Notes under the pieces: model-generated | What the model was told of the DNA's origin: nothing | Databases searched by the model: none | What the model saw: only the letters and a program-made list of their open reading frames with translations | In this document: positions 3,627 to 46,117 of the stretch, piece after piece | How the letters are laid out: the number at the start of each line of letters is the position of its first letter | How positions within the stretch are numbered: the first letter of the stretch is position 1 | Virus record (IMG/VR): IMGVR_UViG_3300009488_000003 | DNA: 51,836 nt | Origin: a virus | Reading direction: 5' to 3' (one strand) | Program-made: the position numbers and the translations under genes

Positions 3627-3654
3627 AGCATAACACACCTGCAAGCGTTGTCAA
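3627..3654 (-). promoter_or_regulatory. sigma70-like early promoter
   Basis: The minus strand reads TTGACA (3654-3649), 16 nt, then TATGCT (3632-3627). The 18-nt core TCCCCTTGACAACGCTTG is also present at 33295 on the plus strand. Confidence 0.6.
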
Positions 3655-3771
3655 GGGGAAGTGAGAATTATCTTGCAGACCCATACATACTATATTGGCA
3701 TGGCTCGAGCCGGTGACGTCGGGCTCGGTGACCGATACTTGCCGGCGCTGGAAAGCGTCAGCAAAGCGGGG

Positions 3772-6066: not shown

Positions 6067-7941
6067 ATGATCTGGACCCGTGAGACATTCCGGTCCGACT
6101 ACGCCCAGCAGCACGACCTGCCCCACTACAGCATCGTGCCCAAGGACCCGCTGGCGAACCTGGAGTTCCGGCGGACGATCTGGGCACGGGCCAAGAGCGA
6201 CCCGGGCTTCCAGCATGAGCAGATGCTCCGCTGCGCCCGCGACCTGCTGTATTTCGTGAACACGTACTGCGTGCTGTTTGAGCCGCGGAAGCCTCTGGGG
6301 CCGGCGGTATTCCCGTTCCTGACGTACGACTTTCAGGACGACACGCTGCTGGAGGTTGATCGGAAGCTGGGCAGAGAGGACATTCCGATCGAGAAGAGCC
6401 GCGACATGGGCGCGAGCTTCATGGTCATTTCGGGCAATCTCTTCCGTCAGTGGCTTTTCGTGCCGCGCTCGAGCTTTCTGCTGGTTAGCCGAAATGAAGG
6501 TCTCGTGGACAGCGCTACGGAACCAGATACGCTGTTCTACAAGCTCGATCTGCAACTCAGTCACCTGCCCCATTGGATGATCCCGCCGTTCACGCGGACG
6601 TTCTGCCATCTGGCCAACCCGGTGATGCACTCGGTCTTCCACGGCGAGACCACGACCGAAGACCTGAGTGCGGGCGGGCGTTGGCTCGTGATCGTGATGG
6701 ACGAGTACGCTCGGTTCAAGCCGGCCCCATCGTTCGAGGCGTGGTCGGCTACGATGCCCAGCACGAACTGCCGCATCCCGATCAGCAGTGCCAAGGGAGC
6801 GATCGGCAAGTTCTACGAACTGATGAACCCAGGCCCGGGCGAGCCCCCGGTAGACAAGATCAGGCTCTTCTGGGACCTGCACCCGGAGCACCGGCGGGGG
6901 TTGTATCAGTATCAGGTGGGCAAACTGGAAATCCTGGATCGGGAATACGTTTTCGCGGCGGATTACCCGTTCAAGCTCGACGGAAAGCTGCGGTCGGTCG
7001 CCTACGACTTCCAGGAGGCACGGCAACGCGATCCCCGCTTCATGGCGCAGGAGTGGGACATCGACTACATCGGGGCCGGTGCGCAGGCGTTCGACCGTGC
7101 CCGCGTGGAGGAGGCCCAAGCGGAGTATGCCCAACCCGCGACCGAGCGGGGCGACCTGCTGCTGGTCGGGGATGAACTTGCCGAGGTGGAGAAGTTCAGC
7201 CGGAACGAGAACGGGCACCTGTCGCTCTGGGTGCCGCTGACGGCAGCCGGACGGCCGCCCGAGGCCAAGTACATCGTGGGGGCGGACATTTCGCTGGGGG
7301 TCGGGGCGACCAACTCGACTGCGTTTGTCATCGACAAGGACCGGTCCGAGCAGGTCGCCGAGCTGGTGACGAACAAGCTGAATCCAGGCGACTTCGCGAT
7401 CCTGGTCGTGGCCCTGTGCGAGTGGTTCCACGGTGCGCTGCTGAATTGGGAGACCAACGGGGTTGGGAGCTGGTTCGGCAAGAAGGTGGGGGAGCTGGGC
7501 TACACGCGGCTGTGGTATCGGCGGTCGAGCGAGGAAGCACTGGATGCCAAGATCGTGTTCAAGCCCGGCTGGAAGAGCAGCCCGACCACCAAGGACTCGG
7601 CCATCGGGCAGTTCGTGACGGCGGCGCTGAACGGGGACATCATTTGCCGAAGTCGGCCGCTGTTCGAGGAGATTATCTTCTACCGCCACACCAAGGGCGG
7701 GATGGTTTCTGGTAGCATGGGCCGGTCGAGCTCTTCTGATGAGGCTAGCAAGGAGAATTTGAGTGACCGGGTGACGGGCGGCGCGGTATGCTACCGGGCA
7801 CTGGGCACGAGCCGGCGGCGCGTGGCCGCGTTGGCGAAGAAGCGTCAGGAGCCGGCGGTCCCAGTCGGCAGTTTGGCGCATCGGCGGAAATACCGGGGAG
7901 AATTGGCCGAAGGGCAGGAACAGAGAGACAGGTGGTACTGA
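6067..7941 (+). CDS. terL: terminase large subunit
   Basis: 624 aa. Walker-B-like LVIVMDEYA. Nuclease-type VGADISLGVGATNSTAFVID. It lies upstream of the portal gene. Confidence 0.8.
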   Translation: MIWTRETFRSDYAQQHDLPHYSIVPKDPLANLEFRRTIWARAKSDPGFQHEQMLRCARDLLYFVNTYCVLFEPRKPLGPAVFPFLTYDFQDDTLLEVDRKLGREDIPIEKSRDMGASFMVISGNLFRQWLFVPRSSFLLVSRNEGLVDSATEPDTLFYKLDLQLSHLPHWMIPPFTRTFCHLANPVMHSVFHGETTTEDLSAGGRWLVIVMDEYARFKPAPSFEAWSATMPSTNCRIPISSAKGAIGKFYELMNPGPGEPPVDKIRLFWDLHPEHRRGLYQYQVGKLEILDREYVFAADYPFKLDGKLRSVAYDFQEARQRDPRFMAQEWDIDYIGAGAQAFDRARVEEAQAEYAQPATERGDLLLVGDELAEVEKFSRNENGHLSLWVPLTAAGRPPEAKYIVGADISLGVGATNSTAFVIDKDRSEQVAELVTNKLNPGDFAILVVALCEWFHGALLNWETNGVGSWFGKKVGELGYTRLWYRRSSEEALDAKIVFKPGWKSSPTTKDSAIGQFVTAALNGDIICRSRPLFEEIIFYRHTKGGMVSGSMGRSSSSDEASKENLSDRVTGGAVCYRALGTSRRRVAALAKKRQEPAVPVGSLAHRRKYRGELAEGQEQRDRWY

Positions 7942-33265: not shown

Positions 33266-33299
33266 CCCCGCTGAATCCCCAATTCCCCCGCACTTCCCC

Positions 33300-33328
33300 T
33301 TGACAACGCTTGGCATTCATGCTATTGT
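33300..33328 (+). promoter_or_regulatory. sigma70-like promoter of the recombinase operon
   Basis: TTGACA (33300-33305), a 17-nt spacer, then TATTGT (33323-33328). Confidence 0.6.
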
Positions 33329-40749: not shown

Positions 40750-40944
40750 TCAAGTTTGCGGGCGTGCCGCCGAACGCTTGCCCAACGCTTCAAATGCGCG
40801 CACGTGAAACTCGTAGATGTTCGTGTCTTGCCACATCCGCGAATCGCCACATAGCAACCAGCCACATACAGACTGCTCGACAAGTCTAACGAGCGCTTTG
40901 TGCCATGCTGGACCAAGTGATTTCAGTAAGTCCAAATCGGTCAT
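40750..40944 (-). CDS. hypothetical protein (64 aa)
   Basis: TTAGGAG lies before the ATG at 40944, which is Met25 of the listed ORF. Confidence 0.5.
   Translation of the reverse strand: MTDLDLLKSLGPAWHKALVRLVEQSVCGWLLCGDSRMWQDTNIYEFHVRAFEALGKRSAARPQT
40757..40775 (-). promoter_or_regulatory. 19-nt repeat GTTCGGCGGCACGCCCGCA (copy 1)
   Basis: Near-identical copies lie at 40960-40978 and 41209-41227. Each ends 15-35 nt before a start codon. Confidence 0.5.
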
Positions 40945-40959
40945 TACAACTCCTAACTG

Positions 40960-40978
40960 TACGGGCGTGCCGCCGAAC
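40960..40978 (-). promoter_or_regulatory. 19-nt repeat GTTCGGCGGCACGCCCGTA (copy 2)
   Basis: Intergenic, followed by TACAGTTAGGAG and then the ATG. Confidence 0.5.
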
Positions 40979-40981
40979 GTC

Positions 40982-41188
40982 TCAAGGCCAGTTTTCAAGT
41001 TCTTCGGCCGAAGCATTAGTATTTACAATAGCATCCGTTTTGTCGTGGATGGCGTGGCGATGTCCTCGCTTGGCGGCTAACCTCTTGGCGCATTGACCGC
41101 CACAAGCGTAACCACCGAAGCTGCTACCCAAGCCGCCTTTGTCGAAATCAAACTCTTTGCCACAGTTGTTGCAGGTTTGCATGTCCAC
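40982..41188 (-). CDS. zinc-finger peptide (68 aa)
   Basis: CNNCG...C motif, with AGGAG upstream. Confidence 0.5.
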   Translation of the reverse strand: MDMQTCNNCGKEFDFDKGGLGSSFGGYACGGQCAKRLAAKRGHRHAIHDKTDAIVNTNASAEELENWP

Positions 41189-41208
41189 CAGTTACTCCTT
41201 TGAAGTTA

Positions 41209-41227
41209 TGCGGGCGTGCCGCCGAAC
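41209..41227 (-). promoter_or_regulatory. 19-nt repeat GTTCGGCGGCACGCCCGCA (copy 3)
   Basis: Intergenic, followed by TAACTTCAAAGGAG. Confidence 0.5.
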
Positions 41228-41283
41228 ATCGACGGTGATGCGAGTCATCCCGAGTAGGTGAATCTGAGGCGTATCGATTCCTC

Positions 41284-41972: not shown

Positions 41973-43184
41973 TCACTTGGTCATTGCAGCTCTTTGTAGC
42001 CGCTTAATCTCAGCCTCCAGCTCAGCGATGTACTCCTCGGGATCGCCCATGCCATCGTGCTCCATCCGTGCGATCTGAGCCTTCAGCCGCTCGACCTCGG
42101 CCTCGACTCGCAACAAATCAGGTGACACGCAAACGTTCGCTACGGCTAAGCCAATGCGCCGGTCCACTTCGCGCTCTGGCTCGGTCAATTTATCCCACGG
42201 CACACACCAGCCTGGCTTCGGATCGCGCTGCTCTTCTGCCCATTCAATCCATGCCTTGCGAACAACTCGTCCTAGAAATTCAGGATCACCCCCTTGCACG
42301 TGCGCTGCCTTTGTCCGCTTAACCTCAGCTTTCAGCCGCTCAATCTCGGCAATGTACTTTTTCAGCATATCCCTCAGCGCATGGTCGCTTCGCCGAAAAT
42401 CAACAAACAGCTCAGGCTCACGCTCAGCCTTGGCGTCGCCCGCCGCGTCGGCACCGGCCTTGTCAGCGGGAATCCCCTTGCTTTCCATGTCACCAGTTTC
42501 GATCAGAGTGCTGTGATAGCCATCGTGCACGCCGTTGTCATAAGCGTTCGCAATTAGTCGCTTCAGCTGCTCGACCTCTTCCTCCAACCGATTACACGCC
42601 TTGTGTGATGTCACGGCGTCGCCCGCCGCGTCGGCACCGGCCTTGCGTAGCTGCTCGATCTCGTGCTCAAATCCGGCTACATTGTTTCTGTTCTGCTCCT
42701 CCAGCTCGGCGATGCGATCGCCGGCCTCGTCTGTCGTCTCGTCTACTTCTCGGTCAAGCTCATCCTGGACCATGTCGCGTATCTCGCCAAACACTATCTG
42801 AGACGCCTCCCCTGGTTTCCAGTAGCCAATTTTGCTCACCAGGTCTTTCAGGCGCTTGACCTCGGCCTCGGCCTTGTGTGCCCGATCTAAGGCTTCGTTC
42901 TTTTCAAGCGTCAACGTCGTAACCGCCGCCACGACTTCATCGACAACGACACCTTGGCCTCGGGTGACATCGCGACATTCCCACTTATCGAGCAAGTTGC
43001 AGACAGCATAGACGATGGACTGATAGCGAATACGGTGGCCCTTTTCCTGCTTGACCTCGGCCTCCAACTTGGCAATAGGCCAACCGCGACGGTCATTCAT
43101 CAGTCCCACGATCTGCGCAGCATCTTCTTTGTGTTTCAAGCGAGCAGTCGCAAGTTCGGCCTCCAGCTCGGTCAGGTCGCTCAT
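41973..43184 (-). CDS. 403-aa coiled-coil protein with internal repeats
   Basis: Five E(V/I)(K/E)RLK heptad blocks. A 30-nt perfect repeat encodes KAGADAAGDA twice. Confidence 0.6.
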   Translation of the reverse strand: MSDLTELEAELATARLKHKEDAAQIVGLMNDRRGWPIAKLEAEVKQEKGHRIRYQSIVYAVCNLLDKWECRDVTRGQGVVVDEVVAAVTTLTLEKNEALDRAHKAEAEVKRLKDLVSKIGYWKPGEASQIVFGEIRDMVQDELDREVDETTDEAGDRIAELEEQNRNNVAGFEHEIEQLRKAGADAAGDAVTSHKACNRLEEEVEQLKRLIANAYDNGVHDGYHSTLIETGDMESKGIPADKAGADAAGDAKAEREPELFVDFRRSDHALRDMLKKYIAEIERLKAEVKRTKAAHVQGGDPEFLGRVVRKAWIEWAEEQRDPKPGWCVPWDKLTEPEREVDRRIGLAVANVCVSPDLLRVEAEVERLKAQIARMEHDGMGDPEEYIAELEAEIKRLQRAAMTK

Positions 43185-43982: not shown

Positions 43983-44464
43983 GGCTGTTCCTTGTCCCAC
44001 AGCGCGAGGGCCTGGCGGAGGAGGAAAAGGGATTCGCTCACCATATATGGCGTCGCAAAGTTCTCAGCGGGGAAATTTGGCGTTCCCGCTTGTGGGATCA
44101 TCGTCTGGCTCAACGGCGGCAGTGAAATTTGGCTAGCAAGTTCGTGCTGCTTCGCAAGAGGAATGTCATGCCACCGGGCTAGAAGATCAATGAACGCTGT
44201 ACGGGCTATGCTCGGCCGCCCCTCCGCCAGCAACTTGCCCCACTGCCCCGCGATCGCCAGCGGGTTGCACGCACAGCCCTTGTTGCGACGCTTGTAGACC
44301 GCGATGGCGGCCCGTAGCTGCTCGGGCGTGGCCCCGGCGTCGCGCAGCTCCTTGAGGCCCTTGTTCCACTTGCCGCGTTCGGACTGGGTTATCGGGCCTG
44401 CGCCGCCGCCGTTGCAGAGTTCTACGGCTACGTCCCATAATGGGTCGGGCTTGCGCTTGGTCAT
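43979..44464 (-). CDS. hypothetical protein (161 aa)
   Basis: GGTGACGAG-ATG start context. Confidence 0.55.
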   Translation of the reverse strand: MTKRKPDPLWDVAVELCNGGGAGPITQSERGKWNKGLKELRDAGATPEQLRAAIAVYKRRNKGCACNPLAIAGQWGKLLAEGRPSIARTAFIDLLARWHDIPLAKQHELASQISLPPLSQTMIPQAGTPNFPAENFATPYMVSESLFLLRQALALWDKEQP

Positions 44465-44841
44465 CTCGTCACCGCACCGATAACGTAGCTCCGCTGCAAA
44501 TAGGCGCGCTTCGAGCTGTCCGGCTCTTCCTGTCGTATGCGTTCCTCTTCGGTCACGAACTCGATGTGCCTGTTGATGTCCTTGAACTCAGACCGTACAC
44601 GGCCCCGGCGTTGGCTCACCCAGTACAGGACGCCGCAGTGACCGTAGCGCCAGAACAGTTCCGCGAGCAGGGGCAATTCCTCATCGGGCACGTATTGGCC
44701 GTCCGCACACGCCCATGCCCACGTATCGTTCATGTTCAAGGTTTGAGCCCAGTCCTTGCCCTCGACCCCGTCATCGTCGTCTTTGCCGAAAAACAGGTCT
44801 GCTCGTGTCAGCAATTCGCGGGCTTCTTCTTCTGTGAACAT
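44461..44841 (-). CDS. hypothetical protein (126 aa)
   Basis: GGTGACGAG-ATG start context. It is the first gene after the ORF-free block. Confidence 0.55.
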   Translation of the reverse strand: MFTEEEARELLTRADLFFGKDDDDGVEGKDWAQTLNMNDTWAWACADGQYVPDEELPLLAELFWRYGHCGVLYWVSQRRGRVRSEFKDINRHIEFVTEEERIRQEEPDSSKRAYLQRSYVIGAVTR

Positions 44842-44854
44842 CTCGTCACCGCAT

Positions 44855-45660
44855 CCCTTGGCACAAGGGCTACGCCCGTCGCGGGACTCGAACCCACTGT
44901 TCAGCCTCCCGCATCTCGAACTCGCCGTGGCCTTTGGCTATGCGGTTCCAGCGGCTTTGCAACCAGCACGGGCATTGTTTCTCGTCAAGCGCACCCAGCC
45001 CTTTACGACCGACCCTACGGGCAAGTGAAATCCGCATGGTCTTTGCCGCTCTCCCTCCTGGATCTCCGCCCGAACAGCAAAAAATCGCGGCGGACGATCT
45101 CAGAGAGAACGGGGTCGCTTGGCTCGCAAGCAAAAACGCGCACGTCGGCCCCGGGTCGCAAGGGAAAACGTTGCCCGGATTTTGGAGAGGAAGCGCGACA
45201 ACTTTCGCGAGCTGGCACGAGCCCCTGGGGGGTGCTCGCCGACCGTCCCGATCCTGCCAGTTGATTGCCCCACTTTTGGCACTTGTCGAGTGGCGGGGTA
45301 AGTGGTAGCACGGAACCCGCGTGATGCTTGTGGCTCGCCAACAACCGGAGATGCGCGACAAACAACTTTGTGGTGCACCCGTGAGCCACAAGATGAAGCC
45401 CCCTTCGCCCTCAGCGACCCAGCCCGAAGCGTGCGCACGCTTGGCCGTCGCCTCGATCTCCAGCCTTGGTGTTGCCAAAGCCGGACCCACCGAGCTGAGC
45501 CGCTGAGGAAGAAGGGGGAAAAGCAATCGCCCAGAACGACCCGACCCGATGGTCCAATGGCTAACGTTGCTAAGTCGCAGCCGGCGAATCGGGCCGCCCT
45601 GGGCGGTTGCAGAGAGAACGAGATTATTGACCATTGAACCATACCCCGTCTTTACGGGCT
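44855..45660 (-). ncRNA. candidate giant structured RNA (~0.8 kb)
   Basis: No credible CDS. Several long-range helices of 10-18 bp can be drawn, and their G:U pairs become A/C mismatches on the plus strand. A T-loop hairpin (44897-44881) and a terminal hairpin (44869-44855) sit at the 3' end. Confidence 0.55.
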
Positions 45661-45673
45661 GTTTGCGGGCGTG

Positions 45674-46117
45674 TCAAGCCCTTTTTTTGGCTTCGTCAGC
45701 CTTTTTAGCCTTTTCCGTGAGGCTCCAGCGGTTGGCTTCATCGTCCCACGTAATGTAGAAGCTCGCCCACAGCGTGTGGTACACGACGTAAGTTGCGATG
45801 GCGCGCCCCGTGGATTGCTTCTTACCGTTCAAAAGCTCCACCACCTCAGCAAACGTCTTCGGCTTGCTTTTCCAGACACTTGATACGAATTGCCACGGTG
45901 CATGATTCGTTCTCCCGACGACGACCTTTGCACCTGGGTGTTGCTCTTGCAGCATTTCCCGAAACATATCCGCGGCATCTCCGCAACTGAAGCTGAGCGA
46001 CTTGCCGTCTTTGTCTAGGCGATGGACGACCATCTCGCCGTGGCAGTTCACGAGAACCAGGAAGGCACGGCTACCATCTTTTTTGGAAGGTCCACAGAAA
46101 TCCTTGTAGTAGCTCAT
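45674..46117 (-). CDS. hypothetical protein (147 aa)
   Basis: Protein-like composition with GAGG before the ATG. Confidence 0.6.
   Translation of the reverse strand: MSYYKDFCGPSKKDGSRAFLVLVNCHGEMVVHRLDKDGKSLSFSCGDAADMFREMLQEQHPGAKVVVGRTNHAPWQFVSSVWKSKPKTFAEVVELLNGKKQSTGRAIATYVVYHTLWASFYITWDDEANRWSLTEKAKKADEAKKRA

Follow-up and report, generated by a model that had tools for sequence, protein, structure and literature searches.

A conserved, heavily base-paired and very probably non-coding element shared by three related uncultured phages

Very few structured RNAs of bacteria and phages exceed 500 nt. Those known, GOLLD, ROOL, OLE, HEARO and raiA, have each opened new biology, the latest being RNA-only nanocages. 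The RNA II of ColE1, a structured plasmid primer of about 550 nt, has a sigma-70 promoter, needs its fold for function and meets no terminator before its site of action, and the pRNA of phi29, 174 nt long, is part of phi29-like packaging motors. Phage leader elements such as put and nut measure tens of nucleotides. In phages and prophages, GOLLD and ROOL often lie beside tRNA genes or tRNA islands, and some covarying pairs of GOLLD, ROOL and OLE have proved to be intermolecular (PMC12286853). In c2-type phages the origin is a non-coding stretch flanked by the first and the second early promoter; it gives rise to the transcript PE1-T and can replicate plasmids without phage proteins (PMC7150918).

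The locus described here belongs to a GC-rich phage that lacks cultured relatives and whose host is probably a member of the Planctomycetota; the window is the whole stretch of 51,836 nt that was analysed (IMG/VR record IMGVR_UViG_3300009488_000003). On its minus strand the genes 45674..46117 and 44461..44841 are separated by 832 nt (45673-44842), in agreement with the gap of about 830 nt of the original prediction, which had proposed it as an ORF-free candidate for a giant structured RNA. Very probably, this gap is a non-protein-coding, conserved, strand-specific and heavily base-paired element that matches no family of Rfam 15 and occurs in three related uncultured phages. Its conserved body, at about 45645-44985 (~0.65 kb), has five parts, namely helices A, B and D and domains E and F (Table 1). 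The whole explanation, which joins conserved non-coding structure to early transcription of the minus strand and a functional RNA, is one that we favour modestly on balance; the element may serve as a stand-alone RNA, as the primer RNA of a transcribed origin or as a cis-acting leader.

Table 1. Features of the element and its borders in the window (H1 to H6, helices named in the original prediction; n, number of sequences)
Feature	Position	Strand	Segments	Remarks
Promoter-like upstream part	45672..45688	-	A tract AAAAAAAGGG 45688-45679, then TTGACA 45677-45672	
-10-like hexamer TAAAGA	45649..45654	-		17 nt after TTGACA; TAAACG in L104, TAAAGT in L105
Spurious 254-codon ORF	44870..45634	-		Public gene calls: hypothetical protein P0042
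Helix A (H1)	45549..45642	-	45642-45630 with 45561-45549	12 pairs, 100% paired, n = 3
Helix B	45523..45610	-	45610-45585 with 45548-45523	About 25 bp, 96% of cells paired
Hairpin C	45582-45559	-		Small, enclosed by helix B
Helix D (H2, extended)	45399..45518	-	45518-45494 with 45423-45399	24-27 bp in 3/3 copies
Window-specific hairpin (H5)	45327..45392	-		Absent from L104 as one clean 69-nt block
Domain E	45245..45316	-	45316-45306/45259-45245, 45298-45293/45273-45268, 45292-45289/45283-45280	Nested
Domain F	44985..45242	-	Closing helix 45242-45230/44996-44985	Multi-branched core; closing helix 11-bp, long-range
Domain F, inner helices, first set		-	45212-45206/45128-45122, 45197-45193/45141-45137, 45179-45174/45155-45150	
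Domain F, inner helices, second set		-	45117-45105/45053-45006, 45041-45032/45020-45011	
Domain F extension (upper part, H6)	45094-45065	-		Window-only
Lineage-specific 3' appendage	44870..44984	-	44897-44881, about 44922-44916	Two GUUCGAG T-loop-like motifs
3' hairpin CCCUUGUGCCAAGGG	44869-44855	-		Upstream of tail
Tail AUGCGGUGACGAG	44854-44842	-		GGUGA ribosome-binding site for next gene, start codon at 44841

In the literal sense the gap is not ORF-free: it holds a frame of 254 codons that gene callers call, as they do in all three contigs, and the three copies are publicly annotated as 'hypothetical proteins' (P0042, P0043 and P0048). What stands of that description is that the gap is non-coding by the tests of periodicity and of homologues. 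Were it real, the gene would encode a fast-evolving, disordered protein rich in Arg, Ser, Gly and Pro, which we consider highly improbable. The same AUG and frame are open for 254, 156 and 230 codons (shuffles, p about 0.05, 0.22 and 0.03), two pairs of indels restore the frame between the window and the homologous contig L104, and mismatches between the window and the second homologous contig, L105, are distributed over the codon positions as 4/9/14. In the two larger comparisons, however, mismatches are flat by codon position (19/25/26 for the window and L104, 14/13/18 for L104 and L105), with no bias to synonymous sites; 164 of the 465 columns aligned with a relative (35%) are out of frame although the nucleotide sequence is conserved there; and amino-acid identity is 47%, far under the nucleotide identity of 85% over the same BLAST-aligned blocks. 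As originally claimed, third-position GC enrichment is missing, the codon-position GC of the ORF being flat at 0.61/0.60/0.65 against 0.53-0.70, 0.36-0.53 and 0.60-0.75 in real genes of the window, and second-position GC is 0.55-0.60 as against 0.30-0.53 in real genes of the window, L104 and L105. The claim that a Shine-Dalgarno sequence is lacking was borne out as well: there is no ribosome-binding site, and the AUG sits inside helix A. Furthermore, the frame ends after 156 codons in L104, and the translation has no Pfam or PHROG match or other homologue, only three such translations occurring among 1.84 billion representative proteins. The coding reading is largely refuted; the homologues do not keep the 254-codon frame with a synonymous bias, the pattern in which the original prediction would have seen a real protein. 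That the open frame is longer than in most shuffles in two of the three copies is not fully explained by the non-coding reading. A small ORF that starts MRxSLARRVGRK... also lies within the element. Its length is 64 aa in the window and, by manual translation, 39 aa in L104; L105 lacks it, and it has no family match. It was set aside, since nucleotide conservation alone explains why the window and L104 share it.

The translation of the spurious ORF was nonetheless the query by which both homologues, on L104 and L105, were reached, a trick that could be reused with other miscalled ORFs; in both contigs the element occupies the syntenic place, downstream of a g80 homologue. The homologue search that had been proposed along with the prediction was fruitful by this route and empty by the nucleotide one: no match to the element was obtained among cultured phages, c2-type phages included, and blastn and nhmmer against 102 loci carrying the downstream gene g126 did not find it. 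The latter is a mosaic gene, and conservation never extends to its neighbours; ordinary genes lie upstream in most g126 loci, and its homologues P0012 and P0009 have no non-coding stretch upstream. No further copies were found in the same protein representatives, in IMG/VR or in about 100 related loci, and a covariance model of the 5' domain matched only the three carriers among the window and 97 loci. In IMG/VR, no relatives of the flanking proteins were found, and exact-motif scans gave 0 matches for domain E and 0 for helix D; the single match of the 5'-domain motif (L107) lies inside a structural gene and was dismissed as chance.

When the minus strand is folded as a single sequence, its minimum free energy (MFE) is -387.5 kcal/mol, with a z of -4.85, or -3.9 with our own shuffles. 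This is the lowest z among 13 segments of 832 nt, two coding segments reaching -3.8 and -3.3, so that thermodynamics alone is only marginal and the convincing evidence for structure is comparative. Over the full 800 nt, 38% of the MFE pairs of the window are kept in L104, no better than the 33-45% of slid controls, and part of any single-sequence fold is therefore wrong. Among pairs with a single-sequence probability of at least 0.9, by contrast with an expected 32-46%, 60-71% are still canonical after substitution in the other sequence, and the pairwise consensus fold holds 183 pairs, 18 of them compensatory and 0 broken in shared columns. Its consensus energy is -200.9 kcal/mol, against -135 +/- 8 when the same 104 substitutions are placed randomly, a value reached in 0/150 simulations of a test that is confounded by block conservation; compensatory pairs number 10, against 6.2 +/- 2 in the simulations (7/150). 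The fold of the minus strand is more stable than that of the plus strand by 31 kcal/mol (-387.5 vs -356.2), and the alignment-fold z is -9.05 on the minus strand, likewise confounded by block conservation, and -3.5 on the plus strand; the minus-strand-specific structure that had been deduced from the asymmetry of G:U pairs is thereby supported. There are only n = 3 sequences, so significance of the R-scape type is not possible. Compensatory, register-specific and strand-specific pairs, as looked for in any conserved structured RNA, were found at that sample size; the covariation is real, though its statistical basis is thin.

A decaying spacer or pseudogene of no function, GC-rich and folding well by chance, would suit the great rarity of the element and a single-sequence z only marginally beyond that of the two coding segments. 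Yet the blocks of the element, 85-100% identical, adjoin genes that have 51-67% nucleotide identity and about 50% third-position mismatch, the covariation is specific to the pairing register, and the fold is preserved by real substitutions and not by randomly placed ones; we find this explanation scarcely credible. The identity of the whole 5' domain is only 71-75%, not far above that of the flanking genes. As a separate observation, phages are mosaic, and a module exchanged not long ago could give the appearance of conservation.

The six helices drawn in the original prediction are all present where it had placed them: H1 has 13 bp with 2 G:U, H2 17 bp with 1 G:U and 1 mismatch, H3 11 bp with 2 G:U and H5 10 bp, H4 is a perfect 16-nt palindrome, and only H6, of 18 bp, needs correction, having 3 G:U rather than 2. 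The sequence motifs GUGGGUUCGAGUCCCGC, CCCUUGUGCCAAGGG and CACGCCCGCAAAC are likewise present. As conserved structure, H1, H2 and the base of H6 hold, H3, H4, H5 and most of H6 being lineage-specific; as for compensatory change, H1 covaries, H2 shows changes of wobble type only, and H5 is absent from L104. Common to the three copies are the 5' domain, the second long hairpin and short junction motifs.

Within the 5' domain, helix A is formed between the extreme 5' end and the apical loop of helix B, so that the two helices cross. Three consecutive pairs of its 12-13 bp covary over a spacer of 80 nt, the triplets of the individual sequences being UCA/UGG, GGU/ACC and UGC/GCA. Helix A is predicted to be the first to form in the nascent RNA, helix B being 14-21 kcal/mol more stable. 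In helix B, three pairs have changed on both sides and are compensatory, four changes are one-sided and wobble-compatible, and 17 of the 25 pairs are invariant. Over the domain, 95% of cells are paired and nine pairs have changed on both sides, compared with 25-42% and 0-1 when the register is slid; the observed measures were reached by at most 3/500 shuffles for any of them and by 1/500 for four of the five. The two helices share no nucleotides, and each is supported by covariation in the three copies; they may coexist as a pseudoknot, alternate or pair between molecules.

In helix D the changes are of wobble type only, with two internal mismatches in addition; the 3' strands of helices D and B are paralogues. 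Its apical part (45493-45424, with H3 and H4) is lineage-specific and is replaced in both relatives. Domain E is about 95% identical to its counterpart in L104, with nearly invariant blocks CGGGUUCCGUGCUACCACUUACCCCGC and GUGGGGCAAUCAACUGGCA and two one-sided changes only, both compatible with pairing; it is not recognisable in L105. The helices of domain F come from the pairwise consensus fold with L104, in which each of three inner helices has one compensatory pair, the closing helix has three wobble changes and none is broken; the upper part of H6 (48 nt) is missing from L104. L105 cannot be aligned over its middle 350 nt, and of domain F that contig shares only the junction motifs CGGUCGGCGA and AAAAUCCrGGC.

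The last ~140 nt of the element are lineage-specific. The 3' appendage cannot be aligned with L104 or L105, and L104 has a probable gene of 59 aa in its place. The 3' hairpin and tail, on the other side, are identical at 33/33 nt in the window and L105, and the tail is kept in L104 too; the gene that follows is g126 in the window and a g161 homologue in L105. A tRNA-like end with T-loop and acceptor, as originally proposed, did not survive: GUGGGUUCGAGUCCCGC and GACGGGC are present, but both relatives lack them, ARAGORN calls no tRNA or tmRNA in the whole 51.8-kb window, and Rfam gives no tRNA match to the element at E<=10. The idea of such an end as a phage attachment site (attP) was also discarded, there being no integrase among the candidate ORFs scanned and no tRNA called.

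A purely DNA-level element, in which protein-binding inverted repeats, cruciforms or the boundaries of recombination modules would do without any RNA function, appears very unlikely. It would account for strands of helices B and D that are nearly invariant beyond the needs of pairing alone, and for borders, AAAAAAGrGCTTGACA and ATGCGGTGACGAG, that recur at other gene junctions or beside different genes in the manner of recombination linkers. It does not agree with the asymmetry of the strands, in G:U pairs as in alignment-fold z, or with the long-range covariation of helix A; one-sided changes are of wobble type on the minus strand, and hairpins are gained or lost as whole units among the relatives, three indels coinciding with whole hairpins.

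Just upstream of the element lies a promoter-like site. Its motif AAAAAAGrGCTTGACA recurs with little or no change in L104, L105 and a further locus, L106, four loci with the window; at the 5' edge the original prediction had noted a variant of a repeat that precedes other early genes. The candidate sigma-70 site reads TTGACA-N17-TAAAGA/-TAAACG/-TAAAGT, preceded by AAAAAAGrG, and encloses in its TTGACA the stop codon TGA of the upstream gene; its -10 is weak, a strict sigma-70 scan gave no flag, and the same A-tract and TTGACA motif also lies 23-29 nt before other start codons. The site would act as a promoter, with a transcription start at about 45645-45642, and the element would be transcribed on the minus strand from a sigma-70-like promoter overlapping the end of the upstream gene. 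A pairing of the promoter's TTGACACGCC with the 3' tail was considered and rejected, since the motif recurs where there is no element and L105 breaks the pair. No terminator is predicted after the element or before the next gene in 3/3 copies, and no U run follows the 3' hairpin. An early transcript would therefore begin with the element, as its first 0.7-0.8 kb, and continue through the early genes downstream; instead of a free-standing 'giant RNA', the element may be a leader or a primer RNA.

As a cis-acting leader, the element would be a structured 5' UTR of 0.7-0.8 kb that controls the early genes through stability, processive antitermination or access to the ribosome-binding site, and would not act in trans. 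In its favour, no terminator separates the element from the next gene in the three copies, the GGUGA tail is conserved despite a different next gene, the loop L1 (CUCG) is able to pair with the tail (CGAG) in all three copies, and helices A and B, formed one after the other, could be alternative folds. Nevertheless, the downstream genes differ among the three copies, which makes gene-specific regulation unlikely; a small gene is inserted between body and tail in L104; an antiterminator would find neither terminator nor attenuator as a target; the pairing of L1 with the tail amounts to 4-6 bp, without covariation; and a length of at least 650 nt is far above that of known phage leader elements. 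We consider this role unlikely.

Rather unlikely too, in our estimation, is a transcribed origin, where the promoter-proximal structured transcript would act as primer or R-loop former for replication of the phage DNA by host enzymes, after the models of PE1-T and RNA II, and where the need of the RNA to fold for processing would explain the conserved structure. A non-coding stretch follows directly on the putative early promoter, with no credible ribosome-binding site or ORF, as in RNA-primed origins, for which the c2-type phages offer a precedent (PMC7150918). It has a fixed place upstream of a recombination and replication module with a RecE/YqaJ exonuclease, a Holliday-junction resolvase and an SbcC-like protein, and a neighbouring gene in L104 matches 'replication initiation protein' PHROGs (1e-6). 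Among about 30 predicted proteins scanned, mostly of the early region at 35.6-51.8 kb, no polymerase, primase, helicase or initiator was recognised, so that the phage probably relies on its host. On the other hand, iterons, DnaA boxes and an AT-rich unwinding stretch are wanting (short repeats occur in two copies only, no DnaA box lies in the element, and GC is 0.62 throughout), the cumulative GC skew turns at about 34 kb, away from the element, and nothing marks a point of RNA-DNA transition. The PHROG match, moreover, is partial, confined to L104 and does not align with g161 of the window, a protein that has no family or PDB match and a poor single-sequence model (pLDDT 56). For g126 the model is confident (pLDDT 87); it has no PDB match, and its BFVD matches are uncharacterised phage proteins only. 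The anti-defence gene Tad4 lies near the element in L104.

The mechanism that we prefer, tentatively and with somewhat less than even confidence, is that the folded body has an RNA function of its own, protected from nucleases and serving as a binding platform. The pseudoknot of helices A and B would lock the 5' end and so protect the early RNA from nucleases; the RNA might be released from the early transcript by cleavage or survive as the 5' part of it; and the nearly invariant helices B and D may form the platform on which a host or phage factor binds. The lack of a terminator and the position upstream of the replication and recombination module suit a leader or a primer equally.

In a bolder version, which we regard as doubtful, large free-standing 'ornate' phage RNAs would gain a new class, founded by this element with its conserved body of ~0.65 kb. 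Helices A and B would then be either a pseudoknot that threads the 5' end and resists nucleases or an intermolecular pairing of a homo-oligomer as in GOLLD, ROOL and OLE, and the RNA, made early and beside anti-defence genes such as Tad4, would bind or sequester a host or phage factor. If it does prove to be a further family, it would widen the short list of large RNAs from a phage lineage without cultured relatives. It would also offer a compact structural target, in which a conserved 5' pseudoknot domain is combined with a pair of paralogous 25-bp arms, and a test case for large RNAs in replication, gene control or host takeover.

The Rfam check suggested in the original prediction was run and assigned no family: Rfam 15 gave no match to GOLLD, ROOL, group I or II introns, RNase P, tmRNA or tRNA, and none by covariance model to self-cleaving ribozymes, HEARO/omega RNA, OLE or raiA. 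GOLLD (RF01998), a family with a conserved, pseudoknotted 3' half, had 0 matches with cmscan at gathering score over the whole window, and permissive scans (E<=10 for the element, E<=5 for L104 and L105) returned four chance matches each, none of them GOLLD or ROOL (RF03087). No reverse transcriptase, IscB/TnpB or recombinase gene is adjacent to the element. The kinship with GOLLD and ROOL that had been suggested accordingly fails, both the covariance-model match and the tRNA neighbourhood (ARAGORN) being absent, and 'new class' is a fair reading, since the element belongs to no Rfam family.

Compared with ColE1 RNA II, the element is likewise structured, preceded by a putative sigma-70-type promoter and free of a terminator; unlike it, it belongs to a phage and not a plasmid, has no homology to it in the Rfam scans and shows no identified G- or C-rich segment that would form a hybrid. 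With phi29 pRNA and the RNAs of intermolecular pseudoknots it shares an early phage transcript, here a putative one, and a covarying pairing, here that of helix A, which does not nest with the rest of the fold; the 12-13 bp of helix A, however, link the 5' end with a loop that lies in the same molecule, which makes an intramolecular reading at least as likely. In the PE1-T of the lactococcal c2-type (Ceduovirus) phages, as here, a non-coding stretch of several hundred nucleotides without ribosome-binding site or ORF comes right after an early promoter, here a putative one, and its interior varies between phage subtypes (PMC7150918). The c2 origin differs in lying between divergent early and late modules with two flanking promoters, whereas the element is placed within the early module, with no second promoter found, and has no sequence similarity to c2-type phages. 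From GOLLD and ROOL it is set apart by a window free of tRNA genes, by a phage probably of Planctomycetota rather than of Lactobacillales, rumen or marine settings, and by an element that would be promoter-proximal and read through into genes and is known in three copies only. It nevertheless resembles them in being phage-encoded, in a size of 0.5-0.8 kb with many helices and crossing pairs of the pseudoknot type, and in a conserved core that is accompanied by variable regions and linkers.

The 832-nt gap between two minus-strand genes credibly represents a new family of large, structured RNA in phages, in keeping with the suggestion in the original prediction that it may be a new class; the comparative support comes from three sequences. 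The window is a phage genome whose large terminase shows ~21% identity to the nearest cultured phage, and it also encodes a RecE/YqaJ exonuclease, a Holliday-junction resolvase and an HNH endonuclease; no similar DNA was found among 50,697 cultured phage records.

The gap had been described as ORF-free, which is not literally so: a 254-codon ORF is present, and public gene predictions list it and its relatives as hypothetical proteins P0042, P0043 and P0048 (254, 156 and 230 residues), although the evidence speaks against its translation. The proposal that this frame is non-coding was borne out by its GC by codon position (0.61/0.60/0.65), which lacks the position-2 dip (0.36-0.53) of real genes here. 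The ORF had no match in Pfam or PHROG. Compared with the homologue on the related phage contig L104, codon positions 1/2/3 carry 19/25/26 mismatches, 164 of the 465 aligned columns are out of frame with the nucleotides nonetheless conserved, and the translations are 47% identical, against 85% for the nucleotides of the same BLAST-aligned blocks. The remaining oddity is frame length: starting at the same AUG, the copies stay open for 254, 156 and 230 codons (p ~0.05, 0.22 and 0.03), and two of these frames exceed most of those in dinucleotide shuffles. Judged by its sequence, the element is not a protein gene and has been miscalled as one in public data.

The downstream gene of 126 residues (g126) has many relatives, whose loci have no other gene in common with the window and no nucleotide similarity to the element. 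Queried with the miscalled translation, the databases gave one match, P0043 on L104, while the conserved upstream gene g80 led to L105, which carries the element, and to L106, which has only the promoter motif in common and ends after it. When 1.84 billion representative proteins were scanned in full with HMMER, these three translations alone came back; IMG/VR yielded no further copy, and a covariance model of the 5' domain found the three copies only in 464 kb of related loci. The element is therefore very rare in public data, yet real.

All six helices originally drawn by hand (H1-H6; H1 is our helix A and H2, extended, our helix D) are present where stated, and their pair numbers hold throughout, except that H6 has three G:U pairs and not two. 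As a single sequence the minus-strand RNA folds at -387.5 kcal/mol (z = -4.85) and the plus strand at -356.2 kcal/mol (z = -4.17), and the element had the lowest energy and the lowest z (-3.9) in a control of thirteen 832-nt windows. Since two coding windows in this control reach z -3.8 and -3.3, thermodynamics alone is suggestive of a structured RNA, not decisive.

The alignment of the window with L104 spans most of the body. Three large indels interrupt it, each taking out one complete window hairpin: the helix D apex, H5 (69 nt) and the upper 48 nt of H6. L105 retains the 5' domain and helix D, along with two short junction motifs and an identical stretch of 33 nt at the end; over its middle 350 nt no alignment is possible. 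In the three-sequence alignment helix A is 100% paired, with three consecutive pairs that differ in all copies (UCA/UGG, GGU/ACC, UGC/GCA), helix B reaches 96%, three of its pairs having changed on both sides and four changes being of wobble type, and helix D keeps 24-27 pairs in every copy. With three sequences as the whole of the comparative evidence, 95% of cells in the 5' domain pair and nine pairs covary; sliding the partner by 1-3 columns lowers these values to 25-42% and 0-1. The strands of helices B and D are nearly invariant, whereas the whole 5' domain is only 71-75% identical; the flanking genes show 51-67% nucleotide identity, with about half of their third positions changed.

Of the 183 pairs in the window-L104 consensus fold, 18 are compensatory, and no pair is broken in shared columns; because this fold was optimised on the sequences themselves, controls were run. 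When the same 104 substitutions were placed randomly on the window sequence, the consensus energy was -135 +/- 8 kcal/mol against -200.9 observed (0 of 150 simulations as low), and column shuffling gave z-scores of -9.05 (minus-strand RNA) and -3.5 (plus strand), energy tests that are partly confounded by block conservation. Compensatory pairs numbered 10, against 6.2 +/- 2.0 with random placement (7 of 150), and pairs predicted from one sequence (probability >=0.9) were canonical after substitution in the other in 60-71% of cases, against an expected 32-46%. Whole-length single-sequence MFE pairs, the unalignable 3' part included, were not better kept than slid controls. At the sequence level, the comparison establishes a conserved, strand-specific fold in a non-coding stretch, and coding for a protein, a role at the DNA level alone and chance, even taken together, are a very improbable account of it.

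Coordinates of the RNA element, its neighbouring genes and recurrent motifs (window unless another contig is named; empty cells, no coordinates)
Feature	Coordinates	Remarks
Element	45673-44842 (minus)	832 nt
Presumed RNA start	near 45645	followed by helix A, then a 19-nt loop
Helix A	45642-45630/45561-45549	
Helix B	45610-45585/45548-45523	after the 19-nt loop; encloses small hairpin C
Helix D	45518-45494/45423-45399	after helix B; 3' strand a paralogue of the helix B 3' strand
Window-only hairpin		between helix D and domain E
Domain E	45316-45245	nearly invariant
Domain F	closing helix 45242-45230/44996-44985	multi-branched core
Window-only appendage	44870-44984 (minus)	115 nt; two T-loop-like GUUCGAG motifs
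6-bp hairpin and tail AUGCGGUGACGAG		immediately before the next start codon
Miscalled ORF	44870-45634	P0042
Upstream gene, window	45674..46117 (minus)	g147
Downstream gene, window	44461..44841 (minus)	g126, then g161
Upstream gene, L104	960-1313	Tad4 homologue, directly upstream
Downstream ORF, L104	1888-2067	59 aa; then a gene matching replication-initiator PHROGs (1e-6)
Flanking genes, L105		upstream g80; downstream g161 homologue, 68% identical to the window's
Large terminase	6067..7941	
403-aa SbcC-like protein	41973-43184 (minus)	exact 31-nt duplicate at 42432 and 42615
Motif after g80	46446-46430 (minus); L104 694-715; L105 ~2136-2156; L106 ~2068-2090	
Early-gene repeat	40752-40784, 40955-40987, 41204-41236 (minus)	partial copy 47459-47442, further upstream of a gene
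Early-gene repeat variant	45673-45661	candidate promoter spacer
12-mer GTTGTCAAGGGG	3647-3658 (+), 33296-33307 (-)	near-copies at 1541, 4171, 5747

Helices A and B cross with no nucleotide in common. In the nascent chain helix A forms first, and under nested folding helix B is 14-21 kcal/mol more stable. The two may form a pseudoknot, a short free 5' end threading into the apical loop of B; they may be successive alternative folds, or may reflect pairing between molecules. Neither ARAGORN nor Rfam accepts the tRNA-like 3' end of the original prediction, and L104 and L105 lack it. The appendage, closed by a 6-bp acceptor-like stem (GCCCGU/ACGGGC), could be a tRNA relic or mimic; the ORFs scanned contained no integrase that might turn it into an attachment site. 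In L104 the 59-aa ORF takes its place, with the conserved RNA body on one side and the conserved tail on the other; this ORF is a probable gene, its ribosome-binding site being AAGGA and its GC by codon position (0.72/0.38/0.58) gene-like.

Upstream, the motif AAAAAAGrGCTTGACA is conserved in four loci and followed 17 nt later by TAAAGA, TAAACG or TAAAGT, the upstream gene's stop codon falling inside TTGACA. It resembles a sigma-70 promoter whose A tract is UP-like; its -10 is weak, and the promoter scan did not report it. The variant of an early-gene repeat noticed at the 5' edge does lie in the candidate promoter spacer; at 40.7-41.2 kb the repeat (GTTCGGCGGCACGCCCGCAwAAC) precedes three small early genes, 5-15 nt ahead of their ribosome-binding sites, and could be an operator, a small RNA hairpin (GGCG-GCA-CGCC) or a translational-regulator binding site. 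Because neither the element nor the sequence after it has a predicted terminator, transcription is expected to run on into the early genes. We infer an early promoter, an RNA start at helix A and read-through into the downstream genes; that this RNA is a cis-acting leader seems to us distinctly unlikely.

The promoter-like motif recurs elsewhere. As TGAAAAAAGrGCTTGACAsGCC (A tract and TTGACA) it directly follows the g80 stop codon in four contigs. At this site it cannot serve the next gene, whose start codon is just 23-29 nt away, as a standard -35 box, and may mark a module boundary or have a regulatory role. The exact 12-mer lies in gene-poor stretches at two strand-switch regions, a placement that suggests promoters or operators, its overall count being not above chance (7 vs 4.5 expected). 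The L104 Tad4 homologue (a type I Thoeris inhibitor; Pfam PF25186, 37.4 bits, cut-off 25) and a weak Lar-like (restriction alleviation) gene nearby in L106 make the slot between g80 and the element look like an anti-defence hot spot. The g126 family (window and loci L001-L102) is a widespread, uncharacterised phage gene family, found at no fewer than 87 metagenome loci, on 16 IMG/VR contigs and in MAGs labelled Planctomycetota, Thermoanaerobaculia, Cyanobacteria and Nitrospiraceae; its gene neighbourhood is never conserved, and its AlphaFold model is confident (pLDDT 87), with no PDB match. The 403-aa protein, which matches an SbcC-like PHROG weakly and has internal repeats, among them 24-nt repeats ~195-285 nt apart, is probably a coiled-coil protein.

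At gathering score Rfam 15 gave no match in the window, and permissive scans of the three copies gave chance matches only. Membership of GOLLD and ROOL, the classes that the original prediction was reminded of, and of OLE, HEARO, raiA, group I/II introns, RNase P, tmRNA and known ribozymes is excluded as far as covariance models can tell. Like the transcribed origin of c2-type lactococcal phages, the element would yield a non-coding, structure-dependent transcript right after an early promoter, here a candidate one (PMC7150918); the corresponding reading, a primer RNA of a transcribed origin, is unlikely. The element lacks iterons, DnaA boxes and an AT-rich stretch, the classical marks of an origin. 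We tentatively prefer, at somewhat less than even odds, a functional RNA in its own right, whose 5' end would be protected by the A/B pseudoknot and whose nearly invariant arms B and D would serve as the binding platform through which it acts. The resemblance of the element to GOLLD and ROOL lies in its size, its phage origin, its modular variable parts and its covarying pairs that are not nested (PMC12286853).
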